A DNA stretch of 64,000 bases from Bdellovibrionota bacterium (GTDB lineage Bacteria > Bdellovibrionota_C > UBA2361 > CAKMMH01). Position 1 is the stretch's first letter. The number at the start of each line of letters is the position of its first letter. The position numbers and the translations under genes are program-made. The DNA lies in NCBI GenBank assembly GCA_050952645.1, contig JBMNLI010000012.1:287588-351587 (forward strand). The letters run 5' to 3'. Under the pieces are notes generated by a model, which ran no database searches, was not told the origin of the DNA, and saw only the letters and a program-made list of their open reading frames with translations. Below are positions 694-46,743 of the stretch, piece after piece.

Positions 694-908
694 TAGCAAT
701 GAGTTTAGTAGCTAGAAATGGGAAAAGAGTAGGAAAAGAATATAAAGAGAGTAGAAAAACAAAAACGGTAGTTCATTTCACGTGTTTAAGTGGGTTAGAA
801 AAAAATTACAGCTACACTTAAAGTTTAGGTTTTAAAGTAATTTATTTTATTTAAACACTTTTAAACGTGTAGAACTGTATTTATCAATAACTAGTTTTTA
901 CTAGTTTT

Positions 909-4811: not shown

Positions 4812-4907
4812 GTTTAAAAGCTTAAAATTAGCCTTTAAGATAATTATTAAGATAATTAGAGTTTGAAAAAATTAAGTTTGAAAAAAAACGTTAACAAAGG
4901 TTATATT

Positions 4908-7900
4908 ATGAAAAATTACTTTATAAATAAAAATTATAAATTAAGAGTAGTAGTAACTATATTTTTTATATTTTTCTTTATAGCATCTCCTTTATACGCA
5001 GAGTTTGATGATTTTAGTGATGCAGTGCCTAAAGGTGCAAGTGTAGAAAATTTAAATAAATACAATACTAATACTAATATTAATACTACTACTAATACTG
5101 CTACTACGAATATTAATGCTAATACAAACGTTAATAAGCCTACAAATTCTAATGTAAACGATGCTTCAAATACCTTTTCTAACACTAATAAACCTACTAG
5201 TGATACTACTAATACTTTAAACCAATCGGGTGCTAACAAGCCTACTACTACTACTAATAATAATAATAATAATAATAAGCCATCTCGTAAAATAACTAGA
5301 CAAGAAGCGATAGCCGAGATAAATAGTCAACTTAACAATGTAAAGCAAGCTACAATGCTACTAAATGTAATAGGAATAAATAATTATGGAAATTTTATAA
5401 ATCATATAGGCGGAGTGCAAAACATACTTTCAACCATAAATTCTTTTGGTGGAGTTAATAGTTTTGCTTCCGTTGTAAATAGTCTTCAAGGATTTAAAAA
5501 CTTTCAATCTTTAATAAACCAAGTAAATGGAATAAGCAACCTTGCGCAATTTATAAACGGCCCAAATATTGGTGGCGTTAGAAATTTTATATCTCTTATA
5601 AGGTCGCTAGGAGGAGGCGGAAATTTGCAATCACTTCTAGGAGATATTGGAGGGCTTGGAAGCTTAAATTCGCTTATAGGAAATCTCGGGGGTATTGGAA
5701 GCTTTCAATCGATACTTAGTGCTTTAGGTGGCTTTGGAAATTTTTCTTCGCTAATAAGTGGTATAGGCTTTGGAAATTTAGCTAACTTTATAAGTGGCAT
5801 TGGTGGTATTGAAAACCTTGCAAATTTTGCAGGGATAGTAACATCGCTATTCGGGGGATTTGGTAGTAATCTTTTTCAAAGTTTTTTAGCAAACTTAAAT
5901 TTACTTGGAAGTTTAGGAAATATCCCTAGTATTTCAAGTATATTGTCGCAATTTGGTTTTGCTAATCTTTTAGATTTTATGAACTGGGCTGAAAGATATC
6001 TAAGATTTTTCGGTATATCTTTAGGTTCTATAGCAAGTGATTGTGAAAATTCAAATAGCGTCTTGACTTGTGCGAGCCAAGCGATGGTCAACGGAACTAT
6101 GAACCTATTTGGAGCTGCTGGAGGAGAATATACTTGTAATGGTGGAGTTTGTAGCCGAAATAATACTATGAAGCAAGCTAGTAAATGCCAAGGTGGCTAC
6201 TGCCCTACTACGCAAAACTTTGATAATTTTGATAAGAATTTAAAATTTTTTCCTAAGGAGATTAGGCTAGACCCTAATTTGAAAAAAAAAACTAAATTAA
6301 CTAAAAGTAATGATATAGCGATTAATCAAAAAGATAATAAACGTGATGAAATTATGCAAGACATAGCTAGTCAGTTGCGTGGTTCTGAAAGGGAAGAAAC
6401 TTTTAAAGCGGTAAAAGAGCAAATAGATAAATATGTAGATACATCTGCTAAAGAAACTAGTTCAAAAGATAGAAAATTACCATTTGCTATAGGAAATGAA
6501 AAAGCATCTGAAATGCGAAGCAAAGAAGAAGCAATCGCTTTAGCTGGTGATTTTAAAATGTGCAATAAAAAAATTGCAAGCGACAGATTAGATATAAATA
6601 TGCTAACGGCTCCGCAGCTTAATTATAAAGAGAATGTTTCTTGTAAAGACGGCACAGGAATATATCTTTCCTCAGCAAAAAACGTATCTAAAGGCAGTTA
6701 TTTTGAACACCGTGCTTATAATCGATTGCAAGGGAGACTCTCAGATTTTATTGGCGACCCAGAAGGAATATTAACTGGTTGTTATGAAATACATAAGGTA
6801 AAACCTCAGTATTATAATATATTAAGACCCGTTGGAAGATGTAGAATGACATTTAACCTAAAAGGCACTAAAATAGGTGTTCCTTCAAAGTTTAAAGAGC
6901 AAATTTGGCTACCTTTTGTTGGTTGTGCCTTAGGTTGCAAAAAATGGACTATAATCTCTGAAAAAGTAGAATACTACTACCCTACTCATAAGATAACTTT
7001 AAGCCAGGACCCATTATATAGTAGATATTTAGAAAAGAACACGGCAGAGAAGATGCTTGCAAAATATAAAAATGCTGTAAAAACGGAGCTAGAAACGGCT
7101 ACATCTAGCAAAGAGCTATCTCAAACGCTTTTAGAAAGCGTATCAAAGTCTGAAAAAAGAGGCTCAGAGGCGAAATTTAAGGGAAAGAGTGATATGGAGA
7201 TACAAGCGACTAAGGGCGTGCCAGAAACTGCATTTTTAGGGCAAATTCAGCACGGTTATATGAGAATTTTTCCATTCGATGCTGCCGAAGAAAAAATGGC
7301 AAATAATGTGTGGAGAAATTCCTACATTGCTTCCTCTAAACAAGCACTTCCGCATGTTTCGGCAAATAAATCTTATTGGGGAACTGATTTTAGTGGAGAA
7401 AGCGATAAATTTTTTACTCCAAACCATACGAGTAAAGATAAAGAAAATTTACAGTTCTACTTAAATTATGCTGGAAATGAAAAACAACAAATATTACGAA
7501 ATAAGCATTTAGAGCATATAAATATTCCTTGGAATACAGTTAGAAGAGATGGACTTACAGGGGGGTCTTATATATATGTAACCGACCAAAAAACCGACCC
7601 AATATTACATGAAAAAGGAGCTCTTCCAGATGAAGAACTTAATCAATTAAATCAGCATAACACTCCTATCAGAAACAAGAATGCGTTTGGAGTTGGAAAT
7701 ATATCATCTTTAAATAATCTTACTCCGACGGGTAATAGCGATTATATAACACAAACGCTAATTCGTGGCTTTAATATGTTTTTAGCGGAGAAAAGCCCAA
7801 TAAAAACTTTAACTTTTGAGCACGAAGATAAGGCAAAGCCTTTATTAGGAACTGGTATGGGCGAGGTTGGGTTTTGCAAACCACTTGTAGGAACTGATGA

Positions 7901-8480
7901 TCCTCAAATGTTGCCTTATAAATATCTAAATCATGCAGTTGTAAAAACTATTGTAGGCGATACTTTTTACCAAACGACGCTTGCTCCTATAACGAAAAGA
8001 AATCCAATGATACGTGGCGAAAGGCAAACATTTAAGCTTAAGTATGATTTATTACATGCTCCAGTTTTAGAAGAGGATAATGGAGAAAAATATCCAAAAT
8101 CTTTTAATGAAGATTTCAATAAGGATGTTCAGAATATACTTAATAAAAAGCTAAAGAAAGACGAGTTGAATGTAGATGAAATAAAGGGAGACACTTGTTA
8201 TGCGTTATTTGAAGCGACTAATAATAATTTAGATTTTAATATGGTCAACACTCTTACTAATAAATATAAAAATGTCTCAACACTTGCTAACAAAGGTGAA
8301 ATAAGTTTTACATTATATACTTTATTTTCAGGGACTATCGCTTTCCCAGGAATGACGTGCCACACTTGGTATCACGGAGTTGGCGTTACGCCTAGGCCAC
8401 AAGCGGGACATTGTTATGATATGTTTGGTGGCTCAAAGGCTACTCCTAAAATTAGAAACGATGAGTTTCGTTTATTTTAA
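4908..8480 (+). CDS. very large secreted protein: Asn/Thr-rich low-complexity region, ~11-residue Gly-x-x-N/S-F-x-S-L-I repeats, Cys-rich segment, large C-terminal domain of unknown function
   Basis: Long ORF (tracked from 4863; likely start ATG at 4908 after AAAGG). Signal peptide (VVTIFFIFFFIASPLYA). The repeat array is visible in the translation (GGVNSFASVVNSLQGFKNFQSLINQVNGISNLAQFING...). Contains an (AAT)7 run encoding poly-Asn at ~5257-5277. Confidence 0.6.
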   Translation: MKNYFINKNYKLRVVVTIFFIFFFIASPLYAEFDDFSDAVPKGASVENLNKYNTNTNINTTTNTATTNINANTNVNKPTNSNVNDASNTFSNTNKPTSDTTNTLNQSGANKPTTTTNNNNNNNKPSRKITRQEAIAEINSQLNNVKQATMLLNVIGINNYGNFINHIGGVQNILSTINSFGGVNSFASVVNSLQGFKNFQSLINQVNGISNLAQFINGPNIGGVRNFISLIRSLGGGGNLQSLLGDIGGLGSLNSLIGNLGGIGSFQSILSALGGFGNFSSLISGIGFGNLANFISGIGGIENLANFAGIVTSLFGGFGSNLFQSFLANLNLLGSLGNIPSISSILSQFGFANLLDFMNWAERYLRFFGISLGSIASDCENSNSVLTCASQAMVNGTMNLFGAAGGEYTCNGGVCSRNNTMKQASKCQGGYCPTTQNFDNFDKNLKFFPKEIRLDPNLKKKTKLTKSNDIAINQKDNKRDEIMQDIASQLRGSEREETFKAVKEQIDKYVDTSAKETSSKDRKLPFAIGNEKASEMRSKEEAIALAGDFKMCNKKIASDRLDINMLTAPQLNYKENVSCKDGTGIYLSSAKNVSKGSYFEHRAYNRLQGRLSDFIGDPEGILTGCYEIHKVKPQYYNILRPVGRCRMTFNLKGTKIGVPSKFKEQIWLPFVGCALGCKKWTIISEKVEYYYPTHKITLSQDPLYSRYLEKNTAEKMLAKYKNAVKTELETATSSKELSQTLLESVSKSEKRGSEAKFKGKSDMEIQATKGVPETAFLGQIQHGYMRIFPFDAAEEKMANNVWRNSYIASSKQALPHVSANKSYWGTDFSGESDKFFTPNHTSKDKENLQFYLNYAGNEKQQILRNKHLEHINIPWNTVRRDGLTGGSYIYVTDQKTDPILHEKGALPDEELNQLNQHNTPIRNKNAFGVGNISSLNNLTPTGNSDYITQTLIRGFNMFLAEKSPIKTLTFEHEDKAKPLLGTGMGEVGFCKPLVGTDDPQMLPYKYLNHAVVKTIVGDTFYQTTLAPITKRNPMIRGERQTFKLKYDLLHAPVLEEDNGEKYPKSFNEDFNKDVQNILNKKLKKDELNVDEIKGDTCYALFEATNNNLDFNMVNTLTNKYKNVSTLANKGEISFTLYTLFSGTIAFPGMTCHTWYHGVGVTPRPQAGHCYDMFGGSKATPKIRNDEFRLF

Positions 8481-8520: not shown

Positions 8521-8608
8521 TTCTTCACGTTTTAAGGTGATTTTAAGCTCTTAAAGTTAGCAAAAGTTAGCATAGTCTAGTCTTAGGAAGCCTTAAAACG
8601 TGAAGAAC
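8521..8608. repeat. MITE-like element, copy 1 (88 bp) with perfect 17-19 bp terminal inverted repeats TTCTTCACGTTTTAAGG(TG)
   Basis: Left end ttcttcacgttttaaggtg and right end ccttaaaacgtgaagaac are exact reverse complements. Related ends recur at 12524, 21153, 23283, 44657/44757 and 53334. Confidence 0.7.
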
Positions 8609-9357: not shown

Positions 9358-11502
9358 ATGAAAGATATGGGAGGATATAATATTTTTAGTGGAAATAACT
9401 CACCTGAAACAAAAGAAAGAACAAAAGCAAGAGGTGAAGTAACAAAGGGTAATAAGAGAGAAGAACCGCTAAAAAATTTTTCCTTTAATAAAGGTAAAGA
9501 TGGTGAAACTATAGAATTTAACCCTACCGATTTTAAGAAAGTTCAACAAAGAGAAGATAATACTCAGAGAACCTTAGATTTAAACTCCCCTCACGATCCA
9601 AATGGAGCAAATACACCAGATCCAAATTCCTCTCCTGACCCCAACAACAGTACTAATCCTCAGATAAAATATGATATGTATGAGGGAAAATTTAATATGA
9701 GAGGGTTGCGTGAAGAATTTAAAGAAGCAGTAGCGAAATATAATCGTATATCAGATAGTGATATTGCTGATAAGAAAGAAGCTAGGCGAAAAATGGATAA
9801 AGCTGGGAAGCTTTATGATGCTGAGTTAGAAAAATCATTAGGGTCAGAAGGCAGACGTGGAATGAGCAATCGGGACATATTTGAAAGCTTAAATGAAGAA
9901 CAAAGAGCGGCATTAGATTATGGAACAATAGTACTCATTATAGATAGTAATTTAGAAGATAGTAAAATAAATTTAACTGAAAAAAAACCTACTAGAGCTT
10001 CAAATGTACCTGCAAAATATAAAGACCGTCTGCTTATTATAACTGGTTCTACAGGGAATATAGAAGTTAAAAAAGCTAAAATAGATCAAGGCGCAAGCTT
10101 GGGAGTTGTTTATCTAAACAAAACCAATGGTAATGATAAGAATAATAGTATCGAAATAGTAATAAGAAGTGGGCAGTTTATTCACGCCGTAATGGTAAAT
10201 GAAGGTGGTGTAAAATTTTGCTTTAATGGGACTCCTGAAGACACAAGCAAAAATCAGCCAGCTAACATAATAGTTCTTGATCACTCAATACTAAGGGGAG
10301 TTAAAAAAGCAACATCTTGTTGTGCAATAGGAACTACATTTGATGGTAGCGCATTAGGTGAGGGATTCGTTGGTTTAGCTAGAGCATATAATAATCGAAT
10401 CCCAATAATAGGAAGAGCTATGCAAGCGTATTATACGTTAACTGGAAATGAAAAAAAGAGTATTAAATTACAAGTATATGGATTATTAGGCAACACAATA
10501 TGGGATAAAACAACTGCAATTTGGCCTGAAGGTCAAACGATATTTGAGGAATTTACAAAAAGATTTCAAAAAGGTAAATATAATAAACGTTTTATAAGTC
10601 CATCGACTAAAGAAAATTATGAAGATTTAATTCGAGAACTATTAAAAGAGCTTCCTGAAGATAAAAAAACGATTAAAGGTTTAATGGAAGCTGTTCAAGA
10701 AAATGAAGATTTAAGTGATGATGAAAAAAGTTTTTTAATCCAAGCATTAAAAACAGTAGATACTGATATAAAAGAATATTATGCCAAAATGTGTCGTAAA
10801 CTTTTAAAATATTGTTCTTGGCCAATGATTTTTAAAAAACCTCCGCAACCATTAGATTTAACAGATGGGCTAGAAAGGCTTCAAAAAGATCCTTGCGTAG
10901 ATATGAAAAAATTAAATGTAGAAGATCTTGCAGATTATGGAATTAATGAGAGAAAATTCCTAAATAATGTCGACAAGGGACACGAGCATATTTATTTAAT
11001 AGTTGATGAAGATACTGGAAGAAGATTCGTAACGGTAGGACGACTTGATGGAAAATTAAATGTAGCAAACATAGTTGACCAAAGAGATCCAAAAAATGGA
11101 CGTTTCGCTACATTCCCAGAACTTTACTCAGACGACATTCGAGTATTTCAATTATTAAGAAAAATCACCACAACCCCTGAAGAGTTTGAAACTAGGAGAA
11201 AAGAATTAAAAATTAGCGATGATGATTTGAAGGAAGTTTTCAAATTTTTCAATCTTAATGAAAATAATCCTTGGGAAACTGATGGCAGAAGCTATATGGA
11301 AAATTATCAAATCTTTCAAGACAGACTTATCACTTGGTTTAATAGTAGGTCGGAGAGATATGGTAATCATGAAGACTTAGTCCAATATAAGAATCCTAAG
11401 ATCACTAAGGAGGTAGAAGTTGGAGGGTTTGTAAGTGAAATTAAAGAAAACAGACAGAACACGGATGCTTTAGAAGGGTTTCTTATAAAGCTCCCTGACT
11501 AA
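9358..11502 (+). CDS. hypothetical 714-aa protein (Pro/Asn-rich N-terminal region, no signal peptide)
   Basis: Long intact ORF. Alternative start at 9367 has better SD spacing. No recognisable domain. Slightly GC-richer than its surroundings. Confidence 0.45.
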   Translation: MKDMGGYNIFSGNNSPETKERTKARGEVTKGNKREEPLKNFSFNKGKDGETIEFNPTDFKKVQQREDNTQRTLDLNSPHDPNGANTPDPNSSPDPNNSTNPQIKYDMYEGKFNMRGLREEFKEAVAKYNRISDSDIADKKEARRKMDKAGKLYDAELEKSLGSEGRRGMSNRDIFESLNEEQRAALDYGTIVLIIDSNLEDSKINLTEKKPTRASNVPAKYKDRLLIITGSTGNIEVKKAKIDQGASLGVVYLNKTNGNDKNNSIEIVIRSGQFIHAVMVNEGGVKFCFNGTPEDTSKNQPANIIVLDHSILRGVKKATSCCAIGTTFDGSALGEGFVGLARAYNNRIPIIGRAMQAYYTLTGNEKKSIKLQVYGLLGNTIWDKTTAIWPEGQTIFEEFTKRFQKGKYNKRFISPSTKENYEDLIRELLKELPEDKKTIKGLMEAVQENEDLSDDEKSFLIQALKTVDTDIKEYYAKMCRKLLKYCSWPMIFKKPPQPLDLTDGLERLQKDPCVDMKKLNVEDLADYGINERKFLNNVDKGHEHIYLIVDEDTGRRFVTVGRLDGKLNVANIVDQRDPKNGRFATFPELYSDDIRVFQLLRKITTTPEEFETRRKELKISDDDLKEVFKFFNLNENNPWETDGRSYMENYQIFQDRLITWFNSRSERYGNHEDLVQYKNPKITKEVEVGGFVSEIKENRQNTDALEGFLIKLPD

Positions 11503-11580
11503 AATATAATATCAATATTTTATCAGAACAATCAGCTTTATTAAAAATTGCCTAAGCGTGTGAAAAATTTTTTTAAAGCC

Positions 11581-12477
11581 TTACTTAGCATTCAACCTAA
11601 CCACATTCTCCATAAGCGTTGCTATAGTCATAGGGCCTACGCCGTTTGGAACGGGGCTTATAAATACGTCTTTATTTTTAAAGCTTTCAAAGTCGATATC
11701 CCCTACTACTTTATTGTCGCTCGCTCTGTTTATTCCGACATCTATTAAAATAGCACCATCTTTTACATTGTCCGAGTTTATCAATTTTTCTTTGCCAACC
11801 GCTGAAACTATAATATCTTTATCCTTTACTTGCAAAGCTAAGTCCTTAGTTCTTGAATGCGAAATAGTAACCGTTGCATTTTGCCTTAAAAGCATAAACG
11901 AAAGAGGAAGCCCTACAAGCATAGAACGCCCAATAACTAGCGCATTTTTACCCGATAAATCTATCTTTTCAAAACTTTCTAACCCATCATGGCTATTGCC
12001 ATTAAGTGAAAGACTTATTAACTCCATAACCGCCTTTGGCGTGCAAGGATATACGCTCGGCTTGCCATTAAATAATTTGCTAGTATTAATCGGAGTTAAA
12101 CAATCCACATCCTTATTAGGCGAAATTAAAGATAGAAAATAGTTTTTATCAAAACCATTAGGAAGCGGAAGCTGAAGCAATATCCCCGTAATATTAGTAT
12201 CTAAATTTAATTTAAATATAACCTCTTCTAACTCTTTCTTAGAAATATCCTTGTCTAAAAAAATCGTCTCCGTTTCTATAAAACATTCCTTTGCTTTTTT
12301 CTCCTTGTTTGAAACGTAAATTTTAGACGCCTCATCGTCCCCAACTAATATAACAGCAAGCTTTGGAAGCTTTTCCCCATTAGCTATAAGCTTAGAAACC
12401 TTGCTCTTAACCGCTTCAAATTTTTTTTTAGCAAAATATGCACCATCTAAAATAATAGGAGTTCCCATAAAAATCAC
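11581..12477 (-). CDS. folD: bifunctional methylenetetrahydrofolate dehydrogenase/cyclohydrolase FolD
   Basis: Full-length similarity to FolD (LAVILVGDDEASKIYV ... ILLQLPLP ... NGVGPMTIATLMEN). True start may be the Met at 12468. Confidence 0.85.
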   Translation of the reverse strand: MIFMGTPIILDGAYFAKKKFEAVKSKVSKLIANGEKLPKLAVILVGDDEASKIYVSNKEKKAKECFIETETIFLDKDISKKELEEVIFKLNLDTNITGILLQLPLPNGFDKNYFLSLISPNKDVDCLTPINTSKLFNGKPSVYPCTPKAVMELISLSLNGNSHDGLESFEKIDLSGKNALVIGRSMLVGLPLSFMLLRQNATVTISHSRTKDLALQVKDKDIIVSAVGKEKLINSDNVKDGAILIDVGINRASDNKVVGDIDFESFKNKDVFISPVPNGVGPMTIATLMENVVRLNAK

Positions 12478-12523
12478 TCTCTCTTTCTTTAATCCTACTA
12501 AATCTTAAATTAAATTTTTCGGC

Positions 12524-12742
12524 TCTTCACCGTTTTAAGTGGATTAAAGACCTTAAAATTAGTATCACGCACCCCACAAAGCCTAAAAGAAAATTGACTT
12601 TAAAGAAATTTGCATAAAATAAATTACTTTAAATATAGTTGTAATTTTTCTTTAAACTATAGCTAGTTTTTTACAAAAGCCAATTTTCTTTTAAGCTAAC
12701 CTAAAAAACAATTTTTCTAACCCACCCAAAACATGAAGAACC
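12524..12742. repeat. MITE-like element, copy 2 (~219 bp, full-length, uninterrupted; contains the empty group II intron target site at 12696/12697)
   Basis: Ends resemble the TIR of copy 1. About 120 bp of internal sequence is near-identical to 21225-21338, and the 3' part matches 23237-23283. Confidence 0.65.
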
Positions 12743-12808
12743 AATTTCTCTTATATGCCTCAAAATATTTTTTTAAAAGCATCTTAACTTAAAACTGAGA
12801 AGCTCTCC

Positions 12809-18515: not shown

Positions 18516-20560
18516 TTATTCTTTACTAGCTTTATCTTTATTAGATTTATCTTCTTTAGCTTTATTATTTTCAAGTGCGTTTCTAGTATCATCTTTTATA
18601 TCATCATTTACATTATTTTTAGTATCATCTTTAGAATTATTTTTTAAATCATTTTTTTCGTCGTTAGAAGAAATTTTTTTACCATCTACGATTTCATCTA
18701 TTTCATCAGCATTAAGAGTTTCTTTTTCTAATACTCTTTTTGCTAGCTCTTCTAGTGTGTTTTTATTATCTAAAACTATTCTTCTTGTCGTATTATAACA
18801 CTCATCTATTATTCTTCTAACCTCAGCATCGATTTCTAGTTGTGTAGTTTCAGAATACTCTCTAGCTTTACCAAACTCTTTTCCTAAAAACACGTGTTCG
18901 TCTTTAGATGAATAATTTATAGGTCCTAACTTTTCACTCATTCCCCATTGACAAACCATTTTTCTTGCGATATTCGTGGCACTTTCAATATCAGAACTAG
19001 CACCAGTGTTAAAATGGTTAAATACTATTTCTTCGGCAGCTCGTCCTCCCATTAGCACTACAATCTTATCTACTAAATAATCTTTAGAATAAGTATGCCT
19101 ATCCGACTCAGGAAGCTGCTGCGTAACTCCTAGAGCCATACCACGGGGCACTATGGTTAATTTATGCACAGGATCTGCATTTTTTAGCTTTTTAGCCACT
19201 AGTGTATGCCCAGCTTCATGGTAAGCGGTAGTTTCTTTTTCTTCATCCGTAAGTATCAAAGAGCGTCTTTCAGCACCCATTAAAACTTTGTCTTTAGCAA
19301 ATTCAAAATCTGAATTTTCTACCTTTTCTTTATTTTGTCTAGCCGCATAAAGCGCTGCTTCATTTACTAAAATCTCTAAATCTGCACCTGAAAATCCAGG
19401 AGTGCCCCTAGCTATAATTTCTAAGTCTACATTATCTGCTAGAGGAGTTTTTCTAGTATGAACTTTTAATATCCCATGGCGTCCGTTAATATCTGGTCTA
19501 GGCACTACTACTTGTCTATCAAATCGTCCTGGGCGAAGAAGCGCAGGGTCTAGCACGTCTGGTCTATTAGTAGCAGCAATCAAGATTACCCCTTCATTAC
19601 TTTCAAAGCCGTCCATTTCAACTAAAAGTTGATTTAGAGTTTGCTCTCTCTCATCGTGTCCCCCACCCATACCTGCTCCACGATGGCGACCTACGGCATC
19701 TATTTCATCTATAAAAATTATGCAAGGAGCATTCTTTTTTCCTTGAATAAATAAATCCCTTACCCTTGAAGCTCCAACACCTACGAACATTTCAACGAAA
19801 TCTGAGCCTGAAATACTAAAAAAAGGAACGCCAGCCTCTCCTGCTATGGCTCTAGCTAAAAGCGTCTTTCCAGTCCCAGGGGAACCTACTAAAAGCACTC
19901 CCTTTGGAATTCTACCTCCTAATTTTGAAAATCTTTTTGGTTCTTTTAAAAATTCTATTATTTCTTCAAGCTCTGCTCTAGCTTCATCTATTCCAGCAAC
20001 GTCTTCAAACGTAACTTTATTTTGATTTTCATTTAAAAGCTTTGCCTTAGATTTTCCAAAACTCATTCCTTTTCCAGAGTTCATTGAAACTTGGCGCATA
20101 AAAAATACCCATATAGCTATGATTATTACTAAAGGAAGCAAGTTTATTAAAACTAAATAATACCAAGGCTCTTCTTTTTCTTCCTTAACCTCTATCTCAA
20201 CACCTTTTTTATTTAATTTATTTATAAGCTTTGGATCGTCTGGGGCGATAGTTGAAAACTGTTCAATAGTATCGAAATATGAGCCAGTTATTTTAGAACC
20301 AGATATTTTTACAGATTTTATATTGCCAGATTCTAATTTTTGATAAAAATTGTGAATAAGAAATTTCAGAACTCTTTTTTATGTCAGGATTCATCGGCAC
20401 CATATAGAGAAAAAATCATTATCGGCAAGGAAAACCCAAAATATTAAATTCTTTACTGTTTGGTTCACGGAAAAAACTCCTAATAAAAATAAAAAAACAC
20501 TAGTAAATATAATAAACTTAACTCTAGTTAAGAGCAATAAGCTAATAAAACTATTTACCT
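18516..20560 (-). CDS. ftsH: ATP-dependent zinc metalloprotease FtsH; intact from TM2 onward, N-terminal ~150 codons interrupted by frameshifts
   Basis: Walker A GSPGTGKT, second region of homology (SRH), and HEAGH zinc motif. Upstream, [20 protein letters not shown] is followed in the +1 frame by [12 protein letters not shown]...[22 protein letters not shown]1-like segment sits further upstream in a third frame. Confidence 0.8.
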
Positions 20561-21078: not shown

Positions 21079-21140
21079 CTTATAATATCTAGCTTATAAT
21101 ATTCTAGATTATAATATCTAGATTATAATATCTAGATTAT
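21079..21140. repeat. ~14-15 bp tandem repeat (tctagattataata) x4 immediately upstream of the dut start
   Basis: Sequence reads atatctagcttataatattctagattataatatctagattataatatctagattatataac. Confidence 0.5.
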
Positions 21141-21152
21141 ATAACAGTTATC

Positions 21153-21338
21153 GTTAACTAAATTCTTCACGTTTTAAGGTGTTTTTAAATCCTAAAAAAT
21201 TAGCATCATCCACCCACAGAAGCCCAAAAGAAAATTGACTTTAAATGAATTTGCATAAAATAAATTACTTTTAATATAGCTGTAATTTTTTTTTGAAACT
21301 ATAGCTAGTTTTATATAAAAGTCAATTTTCTTTTAAGC
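21153..21338. repeat. MITE-like element, copy 3, 5' part (interrupted by the group II intron)
   Basis: Starts with TIR ttcttcacgttttaaggtg. 21225-21338 is near-identical to 12583-12696. Ends ...aattttcttttaagc immediately before the intron's GTGTG. Confidence 0.65.
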
Positions 21339-23236
21339 GTGTGCCGGGCACGACATAGTTCTAGCGGGTGAAAGTCCCGTCACGGGTAGTTGTCACCAAG
21401 TGTAGTGATGCCACAAGCTCGAAGCAGTAATGTTAGAGTGAAGGAAGTGGCGGATCAAAACCAAGGAGCCTACGAACAGAAACCAGATACAAGGCTAAAT
21501 GGTGGGTGAGGTTGCGCTACAAACCGAAGCCCTAAAGACAAACGTAAAACCAAACGAGTAAATCTGGAGGTTGTCTGGTGAAAGAACTATGCCTTACCCC
21601 GGGAGGTCCAGATAAGCGTGCTATGCACGTGCGATATAAAGCTTATATCTGGAAGTCAGTTGATACCATAGTACTTGAGACACCACTCAAGGAAGGGTTG
21701 AACGTTAATATATTGTGAATCACTGTAAGCAAGGCTAGAAGAGTCCGAAATTGAAGATATGCCTAACAAACAGGAACGTAACCTGTGGGGGCAGAAGATA
21801 GAGGGGGTGTTTTCTAGTAGCTTTACAAACAGAGGGAGGAGCAACAGGTGGAATTGATTGAACTGATTATATCAGACAAAAATATAGATGAGGCTATAAA
21901 GGCTGTTAAGCGAAATAAAGGTGCATCTGGTGTAGATGATATGCCAGTAGATGAGCTTGAAGACTATTTTGCCGTTCACAGAGAAGAGATAAAATCTCAG
22001 ATACGTGAAGGGAATTATAAGCCGAGTCCAGTTAAGAGAGTGTATATACCTAAAGCTAATGGTAAGATGAGACCTTTAGGAATACCTACAGTAGTAGATA
22101 GGGTAATTCAACAAGCGGTAGCGCAAATACTAGCACGCGGATACGAAAAAGTATTTTAGTAATAGTAGCTATGGCTTTAGACCTAGAAGGAATTGCCATC
22201 TAGCAGTATATAGAACTCTTGAGTACTTGAAAAGAGGCTATGATTGGGTTATAGACCTAGACATAGAGAAATATTTTGATACTGTTAATCACGACAAAAT
22301 TAATTTTCGATAATCAGGGAACGCATCAAAGATGCGAAGACACTACGATTGATAAGACAGTTCTTAAGAGCTGGTATAATGGAAGATGGATTGTTTACTG
22401 TAAGTGAGAAAGGAGTTCCGCAAGGAGGTCCATTATCCCCAGTATTATCTAACATATACCTTGATAAGCTCGACAAGGAACTGGAAGCAAGAGGACTTAA
22501 GTTTGTTAGATATGCCGATGACTGTAATATATTTGTTAGAAGTGAAAAGGCTGCTAATAGAGTAATGAAGTCCGTTGCGAGTTGGTTGGAGCGTAAGCTA
22601 CGACTTAAAATTAATTCAAGTAAGAGTAAAATCTCTAGGCCGACGGAAAGCACTTTCTTAGGCTTTACCTACTGGAAGAGTGGGTATAAAACTTGGAAAT
22701 GTAAACCTGCTGAAGATCGCAAACGAAAACTCTATGATAAAACTAGAGAAATTCTTTGTAGACGGAAGGCAATGGCACGAACGTTAGGTTCGACATTTCA
22801 ACAGCTAAGCTGGTTAATTAAAGGTTGGATAAACTATTATAAGATAGGAACTCTTAAGACTTTTATAGATAAATATGGTCAATGGCTTAGACACAAAGTG
22901 AGGGTTATAATACTTAAACAGTGGAAATTGCCGAGACGAATCTATCTAAATCTTAAGAAATTGAACCGAATGCTTGGTTGCAATTTTAGAAATGAAGAAA
23001 TCTATAAGGTTGCTAACAGCAGACTCGGCTGGTATAGACGCAGTTCGTGGTACGTAGTGAATTATGCATTAAGCCCTAAAATATTGGGGCGTAAAACAAA
23101 GGAACGAATTGGTTTAATCGACCCTTTGACGTATTACCTGAGTATTACTTGATATTATATTAATGGAGCGCCGTATACGAGACCCGTACGTACGGTGCGA
23201 CGGGAGGGAGAGGGTATAGCCCTCGCTCTACCCTAT
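21339..23236 (+). mobile_element. bacterial group II intron (~1.9 kb), En-minus type, inserted in MITE-like repeat copy 3
   Basis: 5' GTGTGCC... boundary. Domain V/VI-like hairpins near the 3' end (gagcgccgtatacgagacccgtacgtacggtgcgac; gggtatagccctcgctctaccctat with a bulged A). The encoded protein is RT plus maturase. The flanking sequence reconstitutes the uninterrupted repeat seen at 12524-12742. Confidence 0.75.
21848..23152 (+). pseudogene. group II intron-encoded reverse transcriptase/maturase, interrupted by two frameshifts (~22150 and ~22315); no endonuclease domain
   Basis: RT motifs 0-2 lie in ORF 21848..22159 (PLGIPTVVDRVIQQAV). RT3-4 sit in another frame (SYGFRPRRNCHLAV ... DLDIEKYFDTVNHDKI). 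RT5-7 and domain X lie in ORF 22349..23152 (GVPQGGPLSPVLSNIYL ... YADDCNIFV). Confidence 0.7.
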
Positions 23237-23283
23237 TAACTCCCAAAAATAATTTTTCTAACCCACCTAAAACGTAAAGAACC
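23237..23283. repeat. MITE-like element, copy 3, 3' part (after the intron)
   Basis: taactcccaaaaataatttttctaacccacctaaaacgtaaagaac matches 12697-12742. Confidence 0.6.
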
Positions 23284-23309: not shown

Positions 23310-25390
23310 TTAAAGCAAAGCTTTTCTAGAGAGCCTTATTTTACCGAATCTATCGACCTCTAAAACTTTCACTTCAATCTCATCGCCAATTTGCATCTCG
23401 TCTTCTACTCGCCTAATTTTCCTATTAGCGATCTCTGAAATATGTAAAAGCCCATCGGTGCCAGGTAGAATTTCAACGAACGCCCCAAAGTCTGCTATTC
23501 TTTTCACTATACCTTTGTATACTTTACCAACCTCGGCTTCAGCTACAATGCTTTCTACTACCGTTAGGGCTGAATTTATATCATCTTGATTAACTGCCGT
23601 AATTGCTACTATGCTATCATCTGAAATATCTATCTTAACATTATAAGACTCTTGAATAGACCTAATGGTTTTTCCGCCTTGCCCTATAATATCTCTTATC
23701 TTATCAGGATTAATTTTTAGCGTTACTATTTTAGGAGCGTAGCTACTAATCTCATCTTTAGGTTTACTTATAACCTCGTTCATTTTAGAAAGGATAAACA
23801 TTCTTCCTTCGTAAGCTTGTGCTAAGGCTTTTTCTAGAATTTCTTTATCTAGTCCTTTTATTTTAATATCCATTTGAAGTGCAGTTACGCCTTTAGCAGT
23901 TCCGCAAACTTTAAAGTCCATATCTCCTAAGTGATCCTCATCGCCGAGAATATCCGTTAGAACTACGAAATCATCACCTCTTTTCATTAGTCCCATTGCT
24001 ACGCCTGCTGCTGGTGCTGTGATAGGAACGCCTGCGTCCATTAACGCTAAACTAGAACCGCACACGGTCGCCATGGAACTAGAACCGTTGCTTTCAGTGA
24101 TTTCTGAAACTATTCTTATTACGTAAGGAAACTCTTCTTCAGGTGGCAAAATAGCGCTTACAGCACGTTCTGCTAGAGCACCGTGCCCAATTTCACGTCT
24201 CCCTGGGCCCCTTACAGGCTTAGTTTCACCTACTGAAAACGGTGGAAAATTATAGTGTAAAATAAATTTCTTTTTTGCATCATCTTCCATTAAATTATCG
24301 ATTCTTTGTGCTTCGCTTTCAGCTCCTAAAGTGGTCGTAACTATAGCTTGAGTTTCCCCACGAGTAAAAAGTGAAGAACCGTGCGTTCTAGGTAGAACTC
24401 CAATCTCTATAGAGATAGGTCTTACCTCGTTAAATGCACGTCCATCTATTCTTTTTCCTTTATCGAAAGCAAACCCTCTAACGATTTGATAATTTAAATC
24501 TTCAAATATTCTATCTATTTGAACTTTAATGTCGCTTGCGTTTTCATCATCTTCTTTAACGAACTCTTCTACTAGTTTTTCTTTCGCTAATTTTACGGCT
24601 TTTGCTCTTTCTAATTTTTCTTTTACTTGAACTGCGTTTTTAATATCTTCAGAAATAAATTTTTTTACATCGTCAAACAATTTTTCATCGTATCTAGTAT
24701 GCTCAAAAACTATTTTTTCTTTTCCTGCTTGTTTAATTAAATCTTCTTGAAGCTCGATAAGTATTTTTAATTCATTATGAGCATATATAAGTGCATCTAG
24801 CACCTCACTTTCAGGCACTTCTTTAGATTCTCCTTCTACCATTACTATTGCATCTTTAGAACCAGCAACGATATAATTTAAATCTGCATTTTCTCTTTCA
24901 GTTGGACTTGGATTTAATCTTTAGTTTGCCGTCTATCCTACATACTCTAACTGCTGCAATTGGTCCATCAAAGGGTATCTCTGAGATTGATAAAGCTGCT
25001 GATGCACCGCACAAAGCTAGAACGTCTGTATCGTGTTCGCCCGTCTGCGCTCATAACGGTCGCAATAACTTGCACTTCTCTATTAAATCCATCTGGGAAA
25101 AGCGGTCTACAAGGTCTATCTATAAGTCTTGAAGTTAGCGTTTCAGCATCGCTAAGTTTTCCTTCTCTTTTAAGAAATCCTCCAGGAATTTTTCCTGCTG
25201 CATAAGTTTTTTCTACATAATCTATGGTAAGAGGAAAAAAATCTCCCTCTTTTTCTTCTCCTAGACAAGCCGTAACGAGCACCACTGAGTCGTAATATCT
25301 TACGAGCACTGCTCCTGCTGCTTGTTTAGCTATTCTTCCTGTCTCTATACTAAAATTACCACCATGAAAGTCTTTCTGTACTATAAACAT
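23310..25390 (-). CDS. pnp: polynucleotide phosphorylase (PNPase) with two apparent +1 frameshifts (~24900 and ~25040)
   Basis: N-terminal 140-aa ORF is a PNPase RNase-PH domain. The C-terminal 510-aa ORF carries the second PH domain, KH and S1 domains. The joining segment translates correctly ([52 protein letters not shown]) only after removing one G from GGG and one A from AAA. Confidence 0.8.
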
Positions 25391-27573: not shown

Positions 27574-27786
27574 TTAATCTTGAGGAAAAATCTTTTTGAT
27601 ATTTCCTTGGGATATATCCTTTAATTCATCTTCGGTAATAGGTCTTACATCGCGTCCTACAAAGCGACGAACGATGTTAGGAATGTTTCTTACGATTTTA
27701 TCCAAATAAATTTTATTATCTTTTATGGCTAAGCCAAATTCTTCTAATTTTTGGGCATTAATTTCACAAATGCCAAACCCCTTCAA
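27574..27786 (-). CDS. small protein (70 aa) sharing an N-terminal motif with 29127..29402 (possible swapped-hairpin/AbrB-like fold)
   Basis: GFGICEINAQKLEEFGLAIKDNKI versus HGVLTISPEELEEAGLTIREGKI in the paralog. Confidence 0.4.
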   Translation of the reverse strand: MKGFGICEINAQKLEEFGLAIKDNKIYLDKIVRNIPNIVRRFVGRDVRPITEDELKDISQGNIKKIFPQD

Positions 27787-27797
27787 TAAAAAAAATA

Positions 27798-27823
27798 CTT
27801 AGGGAGCAAAATTACTCCCTAAG
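27798..27823 (-). terminator. hairpin terminator, copy A of a repeated motif (cttagggag caaaatta ctccctaag) followed on the minus strand by a T-run
   Basis: 9-bp perfect stem with an 8-nt loop. A9 on the plus strand lies immediately 5', which is a T-run on the minus strand. A second copy at 28563-28588 has a compensatory change. Confidence 0.6.
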
Positions 27824-28060
27824 CGTTATACATTTATGAACTTTAAGCTATATAAACTCAAGCTCAAACCAAACCAGAATGATTTAACTATCTTATGCAA
27901 TTAAGCGATTTTTTAATTTAGACTTTAATAGTATTTGATGCATCTTCAAGCATTTTGCGATACTTATCGAAGTCTTTAAATGAATATTCGCCAATTGATG
28001 AAGTAACTTCGCCTCCTGTAGCTTCTAGAAACATAGTCTGATTGAGTTCGTTAAGCACCT

Positions 28061-28423: not shown

Positions 28424-28562
28424 CGTTAGCTCTACTTTCCGTAGTTATGGAACCTAAAAAGTAAGAAATTTACACTATAAAACCGATTAAAAATAATTGG
28501 TTTCTTTAATGCAAAAACGCCAAATTCACCTATTATCTTTCTAAAAATAGATTAAAAAAATA

Positions 28563-28588
28563 CTTCGGGAGCAAAATTACTCCCGAAG
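28563..28588 (-). terminator. hairpin terminator, copy B of the repeated motif (cttcgggag caaaatta ctcccgaag)
   Basis: Same stem-loop as 27798-27823 with an a>c change compensated by t>g. A-run on the plus strand 5' of it. About 60 nt downstream of the stop of 28648..29025. Confidence 0.6.
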
Positions 28589-28647
28589 CGGACTAGACAA
28601 AACCTAAAGTATAGGTCTTACAAACGACTAGTAAATATCAAAGAACG

Positions 28648-44637: not shown

Positions 44638-44656
44638 AGTATTTAATAATAATAGT

Positions 44657-44757
44657 TCTTTAACGTTTTAAGGTGGGTTTAAGACCTTAAAAATTAGTAT
44701 CACTCACCTACGAACCCAAAAAACAATTTTTCTAACTCACCTTGAACGTCAAAGAAC
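44657..44757. repeat. MITE-like element, copy 4 (101 bp, internally deleted version)
   Basis: Left end ttctttaacgttttaaggtgg. Internal sequence shared with copy 2 (tttaagaccttaaaaattagtatcac; aaaaaacaatttttctaac). Right end caccttgaacgtcaaagaac. Confidence 0.65.
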
Positions 44758-44823: not shown

Positions 44824-46743
44824 TTATAATTCATTATTTAGTAGTAAACTAGCAACCGCTAATGGCTCTAAATTATTAGCTTGAGAAAGTGCTTTAGGAG
44901 CATTCTTTATAATTTCGCTTCTAAGTTTTTTAGCGATAATGTCGGCAGTCTCGGAAGTTAAAACTTCGCTCGATAAATCTAGGAGTGCAAAGCCCGTAGC
45001 TTTTACTAACTCTAAATTGCTTTCTATAACATTAAACATTTCATCCATAGTTTTTATGTTAGTTTCAAGCGTCTCTTTTAAATCACCTAATGCATTACTT
45101 AACTTATAAGCATCTATCGAGTTTGATAAATTAAGATTTTTATCAAAAATCGATGAAAATGTTTTTGATACTCTAGAAAATTTATTCGTTTTTTCTCCGC
45201 TAAACCTTACAAATTCGTCTTGCGTGCTATTATCGATATTTTTTAATGTTCCAAATACGCCAAGTTCTACGACTTGTGAGCTATTATAAGAAAGCGTTAG
45301 CTGTTTTATGCTGTCTAAAGGCTCTCCATTATAACTAGTAATTTCTTGTCCTAAATTATTTATAACTTTTATATTATTTGCGCTAGGCTCAGAATACGCA
45401 ATGTAAGAAAGCCCATTTAGATTATTAGAAATAGTAGAAAACTCTTCTACTAAAACACCACTCTTTATAGTCTTAAAATCATTACTTCCATATTCATAAG
45501 ATAAAATATTACTCCCATCGTAAACGGCAATAGTATTTAAGTCTATAAACCCAAATTTTGTAATGTTTGTATTACTTGAAAAATCATCATCGTTAACAAA
45601 ATCGCTACTTCTAAGTAAATAATTTTGCATATTTTCAGTATCGCTATACGCTGTATATCCCCCATCAGAGCTAATTTGTAAATTAGTAAAAGCCGCGCTT
45701 GCTGCCCCCTCCCTTCTTGCTACTTCTTCTAAAATTAAAGGGCTACTTAAGTCGCTTATATCTACTTTTTCAATCTTTTCTATATTACTATCTTCTGAAA
45801 AACTCGAAAATATTACGACGCTACCATTTTCTGAGATTTTTGCTTCACTATAATTTAACTCATCAGTAGTAAGTTTTTTTAAAAAGTTTCCTCTGTTGTC
45901 AGTTAAATATAATGAAGCGTAATTGATATCTGTTTCATATTTACTTACTATAGAAAGCCCCATTTCTTTATTAACATCTTTTAGTTCATACTCTACACCA
46001 TCTCCTCTTAAAACTATTTTTTCACCAGTAGAGTTTGAGATAAATGAAACCGCTTTTTTACCATCGATAACGCTAGAAAGAACGTTTACATTATTTGAAA
46101 TAATGCCACCTAGACCTAAAGTGCCATCTTTAGCATTAGTAGATATGGTCATAGGAGCATATTTTGAGTTTTCAGACGTTATAACCTTGCCATAAGCACT
46201 CTTTGGAATACTTACTTCTTTTTTAGGTTTTATTTTTTCACTTACTAGACTTTCATTATCACCATCAAAAATAAACTTGTCAAAAACCTCTGCGATAGCT
46301 TCCGACTTTTCAGGATCTAAACCAATTATAGAAAATAATTTACTAAGTCCCTCTTTAGTTAAAAGATCTTTTTCCGCTAGAGAGGCATTGCTAACGAGTT
46401 CCTTAAATTCTTTTACTAACTCACCGTACTTTATATTTAATCTCTTTCTAGTATAAGTTTGAACTGATGGAGATTTAGCTTTTTCTGTAAGCTTTAGCAT
46501 ATCGTCAGTTATCTTTAAAAGCCCTGAAAGAGTGTCCTTTGATATATTTAAATAGTTTATAAGAGAGTTTAAAGATGATACAGAGTTAGCATAAATTCTA
46601 GCTCCACTTTGCAAAGTATCACTCCAGCCTAGGTCTTTAGTATTGCTCACACTTTTAGAAGATGTCTTCTTAGCCATCTTCTCAATAGTAGCAACGAAGT
46701 CTTTATTTAAAACTGTTGATAAACTTACACGACTTACCGTCAT
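44824..46743 (-). CDS. flgL: flagellin-family protein, probably flagellar hook-associated protein 3 (FlgL-like) with a long central insert
   Basis: N-terminal flagellin-N-like LQSGARI motif. C-terminal flagellin-C-like LSQANNLEPLAVASLLL. Confidence 0.5.
   Translation of the reverse strand: MTVSRVSLSTVLNKDFVATIEKMAKKTSSKSVSNTKDLGWSDTLQSGARIYANSVSSLNSLINYLNISKDTLSGLLKITDDMLKLTEKAKSPSVQTYTRKRLNIKYGELVKEFKELVSNASLAEKDLLTKEGLSKLFSIIGLDPEKSEAIAEVFDKFIFDGDNESLVSEKIKPKKEVSIPKSAYGKVITSENSKYAPMTISTNAKDGTLGLGGIISNNVNVLSSVIDGKKAVSFISNSTGEKIVLRGDGVEYELKDVNKEMGLSIVSKYETDINYASLYLTDNRGNFLKKLTTDELNYSEAKISENGSVVIFSSFSEDSNIEKIEKVDISDLSSPLILEEVARREGAASAAFTNLQISSDGGYTAYSDTENMQNYLLRSSDFVNDDDFSSNTNITKFGFIDLNTIAVYDGSNILSYEYGSNDFKTIKSGVLVEEFSTISNNLNGLSYIAYSEPSANNIKVINNLGQEITSYNGEPLDSIKQLTLSYNSSQVVELGVFGTLKNIDNSTQDEFVRFSGEKTNKFSRVSKTFSSIFDKNLNLSNSIDAYKLSNALGDLKETLETNIKTMDEMFNVIESNLELVKATGFALLDLSSEVLTSETADIIAKKLRSEIIKNAPKALSQANNLEPLAVASLLLNNEL

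Follow-up and report, generated by a model that had tools for sequence, protein, structure and literature searches.

We describe a class C (IIC) group II intron in a 64,000-nucleotide stretch of a Bdellovibrionota genome (contig JBMNLI010000012.1 of assembly GCA_050952645.1), which we refer to in its full length as the window. The intron splits one copy of a small dispersed repeat just beyond a DNA hairpin that the repeat itself carries. A second long repeat copy in the same window is uninterrupted at the corresponding position, and further copies of the intron elsewhere adjoin the same repeat stem. We consider it probable, with a probability of roughly 0.8, that this intron has spread in its host genome by ordinary class C retrohoming into the repeat-borne hairpin.

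The intron and its encoded protein

An earlier annotation of the window, made by a model from the letters and a list of open reading frames (ORFs) and called here the original prediction, had placed a group II intron at 21339-23236. A check with covariance models assigned both a domain I region (RF02001) and domains V and VI (RF00029) to this interval (Table 1), and all coordinates and sequences quoted in the annotation proved correct when re-read from the window. The element begins with GTGTGCC and ends with CUACCCUAU. The RF00029 match stops exactly at the proposed 3' boundary; the 3' splice site is directly after 23236, and the bulged branch A lies at about 23230. Judged by its conserved ribozyme domains, its 5' GTGTG, and its reverse transcriptase (RT)-maturase ORF, this is a complete group II intron, with a length of 1898 nt in the window assembly versus 1894 nt in intact copies. 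Its domain V triad reads CGC (23169-23171), opposite AGC in the Rfam consensus. A CGC triad in place of AGC is a trait of IIC introns, as in O.i. I1.

The intron-encoded protein (IEP) also points to class C. In its repaired form, it contains RVT_1 (1e-46) and GIIM (3e-9) as its sole domains, with no HNH or other endonuclease domain found in the domain search, and it scores 410 bits (cut-off 300) on TIGR04416, the NCBIfam model for the group II RT/maturase. The closest solved proteins are all IIC RTs, including that of E.r. (7uim, 7e-107), a 427-aa enzyme that the 433-aa IEP matches end to end, GsI-IIC (6ar1, 1e-99), and the R.i./E.r. structures 5hhj/5hhl (1e-88 to 1e-90). Structures outside class C match more weakly, with 4e-48 for the IIA protein LtrA and 9e-38 for the IIB protein TeI4h. 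Together, the best matches among solved structures and the missing endonuclease domain support an assignment to the endonuclease-minus introns of class C, as had been proposed from the domain content.

The original prediction was right about the domains of the IEP, RT and X without an endonuclease, but it had overlooked three single-base insertions (22146, 22296, and 22304) that break up the protein in the window, leaving fragments of 103, about 56, and 267 aa. Set against three metagenomic copies, the intron of the window shows five differences: one substitution and four 1-nt insertions in A or T runs, namely these three and one at 21614 in the RNA part. Protein look-ups gave no match for the split products. 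The repaired IEP is 100% identical to an intact protein, P0001, in the best local alignment, with an approximate repair junction, and the frame is intact in the metagenomic copies L081-L086. One of these, L081, derives from the locus seen in the window: downstream of the intron, 1254 nt including pnp are identical. Intact copies of the intron therefore exist whether the frameshifts in the window are assembly errors or real.

Breaks of a similar kind were observed in both neighboring genes. The pnp gene (23310-25390, minus strand) is split into ORFs at 23310-24842 and 24968-25390, with an A-run frameshift near 24890, and the N-terminus of ftsH (18516-20500, minus strand) is out of frame at an A-run break like those of the IEP. 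Independent short-read Logan contigs nevertheless agree with the window without a mismatch across 9.1 kb.

The intron is richer in G+C than the rest of the window (40.5% versus 30.7%), and its nearest relatives are found in Firmicutes (Erysipelotrichaceae and Clostridia). These two features suggest that it was probably acquired by horizontal transfer into a genome of about 31% GC.

Target recognition at the repeat

Reviews list terminators and attC sites as the targets of class C introns (PMC4424553) and describe their recognition as structure-based, through a DNA hairpin and a very short pairing between exon-binding site 1 (EBS1) and intron-binding site 1 (IBS1) (PMC4424553, PMC7306698). We compared the window intron with relatives found by scanning the IEP against a genome collection with one genome per species (GTDB representatives), to which the source genome does not belong. 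The relatives, at 77% identity or less, came from an Erysipelotrichaceae metagenome-assembled genome (MAG), Clostridia, Lactimicrobium (10 copies), and Allobaculum (6 copies). Among those with 57-77% amino acid identity, the 5' boundary could be placed with nhmmer for 24 introns, and the 3' boundary for 19. GTGTG(C/T)C opens all 24, and CTAC(C/T)CTAT closes the 19 with two exceptions. All 24 are inserted 3-8 nt past the T-run of a hairpin, mostly G+C-rich, an arrangement that is recognizably the classical class C terminator signature.

EBS1 was mapped by scoring each column of the intron alignment for complementarity to the intron's own exon end across 28 intron/exon pairs. The best column was complementary in 93% of the pairs and the next best in 55%. 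In the window intron, it holds GCU, which matches exon ends of AGC or, at sites on the other strand, GGC through a G-U wobble. Both partners change together between lineages, with EBS1 AAG and exon end CUU in L019, CGA and UCG in L001, UAU and AUA in Lactimicrobium, CUA and UAG in L010, and CAA and UUG in L026. The base designated IBS3 is the T at 23237, the first of the 3' exon. Another candidate for EBS1, GCUU in the hairpin at 21633-21649, was ruled out by the column scan, which favored the position given in Table 1.

At the window locus, the 5' exon ends ...GTCAATTTTCTTTT-AAGC. As originally proposed, the insertion point lies 4 nt beyond the 3' arm of a long-range inverted repeat, for which we measured 14-nt arms separated by 81 nt. 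Folding as single-stranded DNA (ssDNA) extends this stem to about 17-21 bp (dG -20.7 kcal/mol, z -4.9), and the stem folds on either strand (dG about -20 to -21 kcal/mol, z -3.9 to -5.0). The 3' arm is T-rich, and in the relatives, a T-run likewise precedes the insertion site. No terminator-like site was predicted near the insertion at this locus.

Copy 2 of the repeat shows what this site looks like without the intron. The flanks of the interrupted copy 3 are colinear with it (83% identity over 113 nt, 90% over 52 nt, and 80% over 40 nt), and its top-strand junction reads continuously as ttttcttttaagc/taacctaaaaaacaatttttctaacccacc at 12696/12697 (AAGC/TAAC). It is thus the empty target site that the original prediction had named. 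The inner module of copy 2 folds with a dG of -19.9 and a z of -3.9, and the bottom-strand site at 12580/12581 is likewise empty. Because the module is palindromic up to its flanks (GCYY-AAAAGAAAATTGAC...GTCAATTTTCTTTT-RRGC), each long repeat copy would offer the intron one site per strand, and sites on both strands are used.

Two contig ends fall at copy 2 in the short-read data. Logan contig L088 (SRR31061295_65455), which covers the right flank of copy 2, stops at window position 12696, no more than 1 nt away from the site. The contig on the left stops within the shared module, at 12614. An intron contig from the same run, L084, carries the copy-2-type 5' flank CCAATTTTCTTTTAAGC immediately before the intron. 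Copy 2 may be polymorphic for intron occupancy, but the contig ends are off by one from a clean graph branch, and we do not count them as evidence.

Further occupied copies and alternative explanations

The intron is present in multiple copies. The source MAG holds four identical intact IEP genes, one other that is broken, and the window copy, for a total of at least six intron copies, and the copies differ at five positions or fewer. Eight of ten window proteins have exact counterparts in this MAG, whose locus tags begin with ACOX3T and whose IEP records are MGI6680067.1, MGI6680120.1, MGI6680199.1, MGI6680507.1, and MGI6680412.1/414.1. This near-identity suggests a recent burst. We retrieved further contigs via the IEP protein alone, without reference to the repeat, and they yielded three more occupied sites, bearing out an expectation of the original prediction that additional copies would be found. 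In L083, the intron occupies the top-strand AAGC site, as in the window, but of another long repeat copy. In L082, the repeat is inverted, with both flanks colinear with the repeat, and the intron is on the other strand, directly after GTCAATTTTCTTTT-GGGC. The strain behind L086 is more divergent; there too the repeat runs in reverse and the intron follows GGGC, and the stem arms enclose only about 20 nt. In the latter two contigs, the intron follows ...TTTTCTTTTGGGC on the other strand, so the target is present on both strands, a point on which the original prediction had been silent. The intron lies 4 nt past the repeat stem in the window, L082, and L083, where that stem folds with z from -4 to -5, and all four distinct occupied sites adjoin that stem. 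Metagenome DNA scans with the intron 5' end and with the repeat terminus gave no matches in a collection that does not contain this organism.

These sites could be reached by the standard route, in which a class C intron reverse-splices into DNA and the replication fork provides the primer (PMC4424553, PMC7306698). The spliced intron RNA and its endonuclease-less RT would reverse-splice into ssDNA bearing the hairpin. Because the IEP has no endonuclease, the nascent DNA strand at a replication fork would prime the cDNA copy. Specificity would come from the hairpin, from the three base pairs between EBS1 (GCU) and IBS1 (RGC), and from the T that opens the 3' exon. In the relatives, the hairpin is an intrinsic terminator; here, it is the 14-21-bp A/T-rich stem of the palindromic module. 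The original prediction had called the situation unusual, a word that needs tempering; the normal structure-based rule of class C would here apply to a hairpin that a repeat carries.

One alternative differs from retrohoming into the repeat-borne hairpin only in how specialized the intron is taken to be. The intron may be a generic terminator hunter that uses any hairpin followed by a T-run and NRGC, with the module merely the commonest such motif in an AT-rich genome. The module would then perhaps be a bidirectional terminator, and other intron copies may follow ordinary terminators. Such behavior would resemble that of close relatives, which insert at many terminators unrelated to one another and match IBS1 loosely over 3 nt, and class C recognition has been described as based on structure and not on sequence (PMC7306698, PMC4424553). 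The 3' flanks of L083 and L086, which are not clearly repeat, could be read in the same way. However, four of four distinct 5' flanks, obtained independently of the repeat, are the same repeat stem, and the window hairpins at 27786-27825 and 28551-28590 carry no intron. We regard this alternative as possible but rather unlikely.

The window by itself, with one occupied and one empty long copy, would also be compatible with a one-off chance insertion into a single repeat copy that has no bearing on targeting. Against this stand three more independent occupied copies, at the same stem distance and on both strands, each with an exon end complementary to EBS1, and we find a chance event highly improbable. 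We give still less credence to the idea that the palindromic module is no pre-existing target and instead moves as part of the intron unit. The 5' flank is always the module and the 3' flank varies in L083 and L086, as this idea would require, but copy 2 holds a complete module without an intron, in L082 and L086 the intron adjoins the opposite side of the module, on the opposite strand, and the flanks in both the window and L082 are colinear with the uninterrupted repeat.

The least credible explanation is an assembly artefact, in which a multi-copy intron was misassembled into a multi-copy repeat. Both elements are indeed repeated, short-read contigs break at their edges, and the window copy has odd homopolymer insertions. 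Nevertheless, the independent JGI assembly L081 has the same junction of intron, 3' exon, and pnp with its identical flank, L084 has a copy-2-type 5' junction, and the junctions fall exactly at the ribozyme boundaries with EBS1 and IBS1 complementary.

Several observations weigh against retrohoming into the repeat-borne hairpin as the main mode of spread, or at least limit it. The splicing and mobility of the intron are predicted from its sequence, with the near-identical copies, at least six in one MAG, and the empty site as indirect signs, and the claim that the repeat is the main target rests on four of four sites, four being the number of distinct occupied sites examined. The loop of the stem, at about 75-81 nt and structured, is unusually long compared with known class C targets. 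The minimum-energy fold of L086 avoids the expected stem (z -1.5), though the arm sequences are the same. In L083 (17 nt) and L086, it is not clear that the repeat goes on in the 3' flank; the metagenome assembly could be chimeric there, intron copies could have recombined, or the repeats could be truncated. Finally, the window intron is antisense to both neighboring genes and its IEP is frameshifted, which makes the expression of this particular copy uncertain.

The repeat family and its surroundings

The window contains five copies of the repeat (Table 1), one of which, copy 5, was not in the original account. They measure 87-222 bp and contain no ORF. A terminal motif, TTTTTCTAACCCACC, has seven matches in the window at two or fewer mismatches versus 0.19 expected by chance, and four of the seven are in repeat copies. 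A correction to the original prediction is that the repeat is composite and modular, with an outer element bounded by terminal inverted repeats (TIRs) that occurs with or without a palindromic inner module of about 120 bp, and by sequence comparison, only the inner module carries the intron target. The TIRs of copies 4 and 5 are 19-24 nt long and 83-95% complementary.

A 7-nt direct repeat, CCYAAAA, flanks the inner module in copy 2 (12582-12588 and 12699-12705) and copy 3 (21223-21229 and 23242-23248), and the equivalent point in the short copy 4 bears just one CCCAAAA. The sequences are consistent with two origins: the inner module may have inserted into the repeat and duplicated its target site, or a deletion between the direct repeats may have produced the short form. 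For the outer element, candidate target-site duplications are CTAA (copy 5), TTAACTA (copy 3, offset), and ATAATA (copy 4), which in such A/T-rich flanks cannot be told from chance. The window ORFs that were scanned include no partner transposase, and an Rfam scan of the repeat returned no family and only a chance match to a miRNA precursor (E = 0.53). [quoted passage not shown] That it is a MITE is plausible.

Table 1. Positions of the intron, its functional parts, and the repeat copies in the window.
Feature	Position	Strand	Basis or detail
Repeat copy 1, diverged outer termini and central inner segment, without stem arms	771..875	-	
Repeat copy 5, outer element only, near-perfect 19-20-bp TIRs	8521..8607	+	95% complementary
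Repeat copy 2, long form with inner module	12521..12742	+	22-nt arms, 91% complementary
Repeat copy 3, 5' part (5' exon): outer TIR (TTCTTCACGTTTTAAGG...) and inner palindromic module	21163..21338	+	nhmmer, 2e-52
Target stem, 5' arm, AAAAGAAAATTGAC	21226..21239	+	Pairs with 21321-21334 in ssDNA fold
Target stem, 3' arm, GTCAATTTTCTTTT	21321..21334	+	T-rich; mimics terminator stem and T-run
IBS1 (AGC), last 3 nt of 5' exon	21336..21338	+	Complementary to EBS1 GCU
Class C (IIC) group II intron	21339..23236	+	Rfam, protein, and relative comparisons
Domain I region	21421..21592	+	Rfam RF02001 group-II-D1D4-3, 106.7 bits (gathering score 32), E = 8e-21
EBS1 (GCU), loop of hairpin GGUUGC-GCUA-CAAACC	21516..21518	+	Column scan, compensatory changes across lineages
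IEP: RT, maturase/X, and C-terminal region, without endonuclease	21848..23152	+	Repaired product 433 aa
Domains V and VI	23166..23236	+	Rfam RF00029, 42.1 bits, above gathering score, model covered end to end
Repeat copy 3, 3' part (TAACTCCCAAAAATAATTTTTCTAACCCACCTAAAACGTAAAGAAC) (3' exon)	23237..23283	+	E = 5e-8
Repeat copy 4, outer element only, no inner module and hence no target	44655..44757	+	Sequence comparison

The intron-bearing repeat lies between ftsH and pnp, and the flanking intergenic repeats adjoin the housekeeping genes ftsH, pnp, and folD. A promoter scan at the locus gave matches no more frequent than in shuffled sequence. Directly upstream of copy 3, at 21080-21141, is a tandem repeat of a 14-nt unit, TTATAATATCTAGA, with 4.4 units and abundant TATAAT-like hexamers, from which transcription could enter the repeat and intron.

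Other features of the window are recorded here as observations. The sign of the GC skew flips at about 11500-12800, from positive to negative, and gene orientation switches from plus to minus at about 12 kb. Such a flip fits a replication terminus or another strand-switch point, and copy 2 sits right there. The two hairpins at 27786-27825 and 28551-28590 are copies of a 40-nt element (93% identical) in which CTTAGGGAG...CTCCCTAAG follows an A-run, possibly a terminator. Three large ORFs, at 4863-8480 (1205 aa), 9358-11502 (714 aa), and 44824-46743 (639 aa), have no Pfam match, and the last also has no NCBIfam match; two of the three adjoin repeat copies.

Relation to known systems and significance

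The window intron most resembles the class C introns that target terminators, such as B.h.I1, GsI-IIC, and E.r. I1 (Robart et al. 2007, as cited in PMC4424553 and PMC7306698). It shares with them an RT-X IEP without an endonuclease, to which its sequence similarity is strongest, as well as the 5' GUGUG, the CGC triad, a length of about 1.9 kb, the 3-nt EBS1-IBS1 pairing, and insertion a few nucleotides past a DNA hairpin with a T-rich 3' side. It differs in that its hairpin in the window is not a predicted terminator and belongs to a dispersed repeat, in that an A/T stem of 14-21 bp encloses about 75-81 nt (about 20 nt in L086), and in that one palindrome is used on both strands.

A second comparison is with the IIC-attC introns, for example S.ma.I2, for which the target is the attC site of integrons (Quiroga et al. 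2008; Leon and Roy 2009, as cited in PMC4424553). In both cases, a class C lineage uses not a terminator but a repeated, imperfectly palindromic, recombination-related motif that is itself part of a mobile system, which in our case would depend on the repeat being mobile. The targets here are intergenic TIR repeats and not integron cassettes; we found no attC site in a cassette array, and the integrase scan covered part of the window ORFs. In addition, the closest relatives of the window intron target terminators, and IIC-attC introns use only the bottom strand of attC, unlike the two-strand use of the repeat.

Group II introns frequently hide inside mobile elements (PMC7306698), and other mobile elements are known to insert into repetitive extragenic palindromic (REP) sequences or bacterial interspersed mosaic elements (BIMEs), including ISPpu9, ISPpu10, and IS1397 (PMC1525189). 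The common theme is a mobile element nested in a small extragenic palindrome, a safe site that spares genes. REP-targeting elements, however, are mostly DNA transposons. For the group II intron of P. putida KT2440, two of nine copies are REP-associated (PMC1525189), a weak association (22%) for which no mechanism was given, in contrast to the four of four copies examined here, which lie at one defined position with base-pairing support. The repeat itself is like bacterial MITEs such as Correia elements and Rickettsia palindromic elements (RPEs) in its size (90-220 bp), 19-25-bp TIRs, lack of coding capacity, dispersed intergenic distribution, and modular structure. It is unlike them in its ambiguous target-site duplications and the absence of a detected transposase, and the likeness is one of structure.

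In the literature that we searched, we found neither a class C intron linked to a family of MITE-like repeats nor one that uses a single palindrome on both strands; the nearest precedent is the REP association of the KT2440 intron. The mechanism proposed here is standard and leaves the mechanistic understanding of class C introns unchanged; the novelty lies in the niche that is targeted and in its symmetry across the two strands. A bolder and, in our judgment, doubtful extension is that this is a class C lineage specialized on a mobile palindromic repeat, with loaded repeats also moved by the repeat's transposase. If true, the spread of the repeat would create landing pads for the intron, two per copy with one on each strand, and intron-loaded repeats of about 2.1 kb with intact TIRs would be transposable at the DNA level. 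This would give a retroelement a second, transposase-driven route, and the repeats would form a third category of class C targets beside terminators and attC sites.

A palindrome that is carried by a repeat and used on both strands would make a natural third kind of class C target. The sites described here suggest that the hairpin requirement of class C introns stretches far, to a stem rich in A/T whose structured loop measures about 80 nt. The hairpin, RGC, and EBS1 provide a compact natural data set for testing which features of DNA are recognized by IIC ribonucleoproteins, a question that bears on the engineering of IIC-based targeting tools. For the bacterium itself, the arrangement would be one of selfish elements nested within each other in a reduced, AT-rich genome, where the near-identical intron copies could drive recombination.

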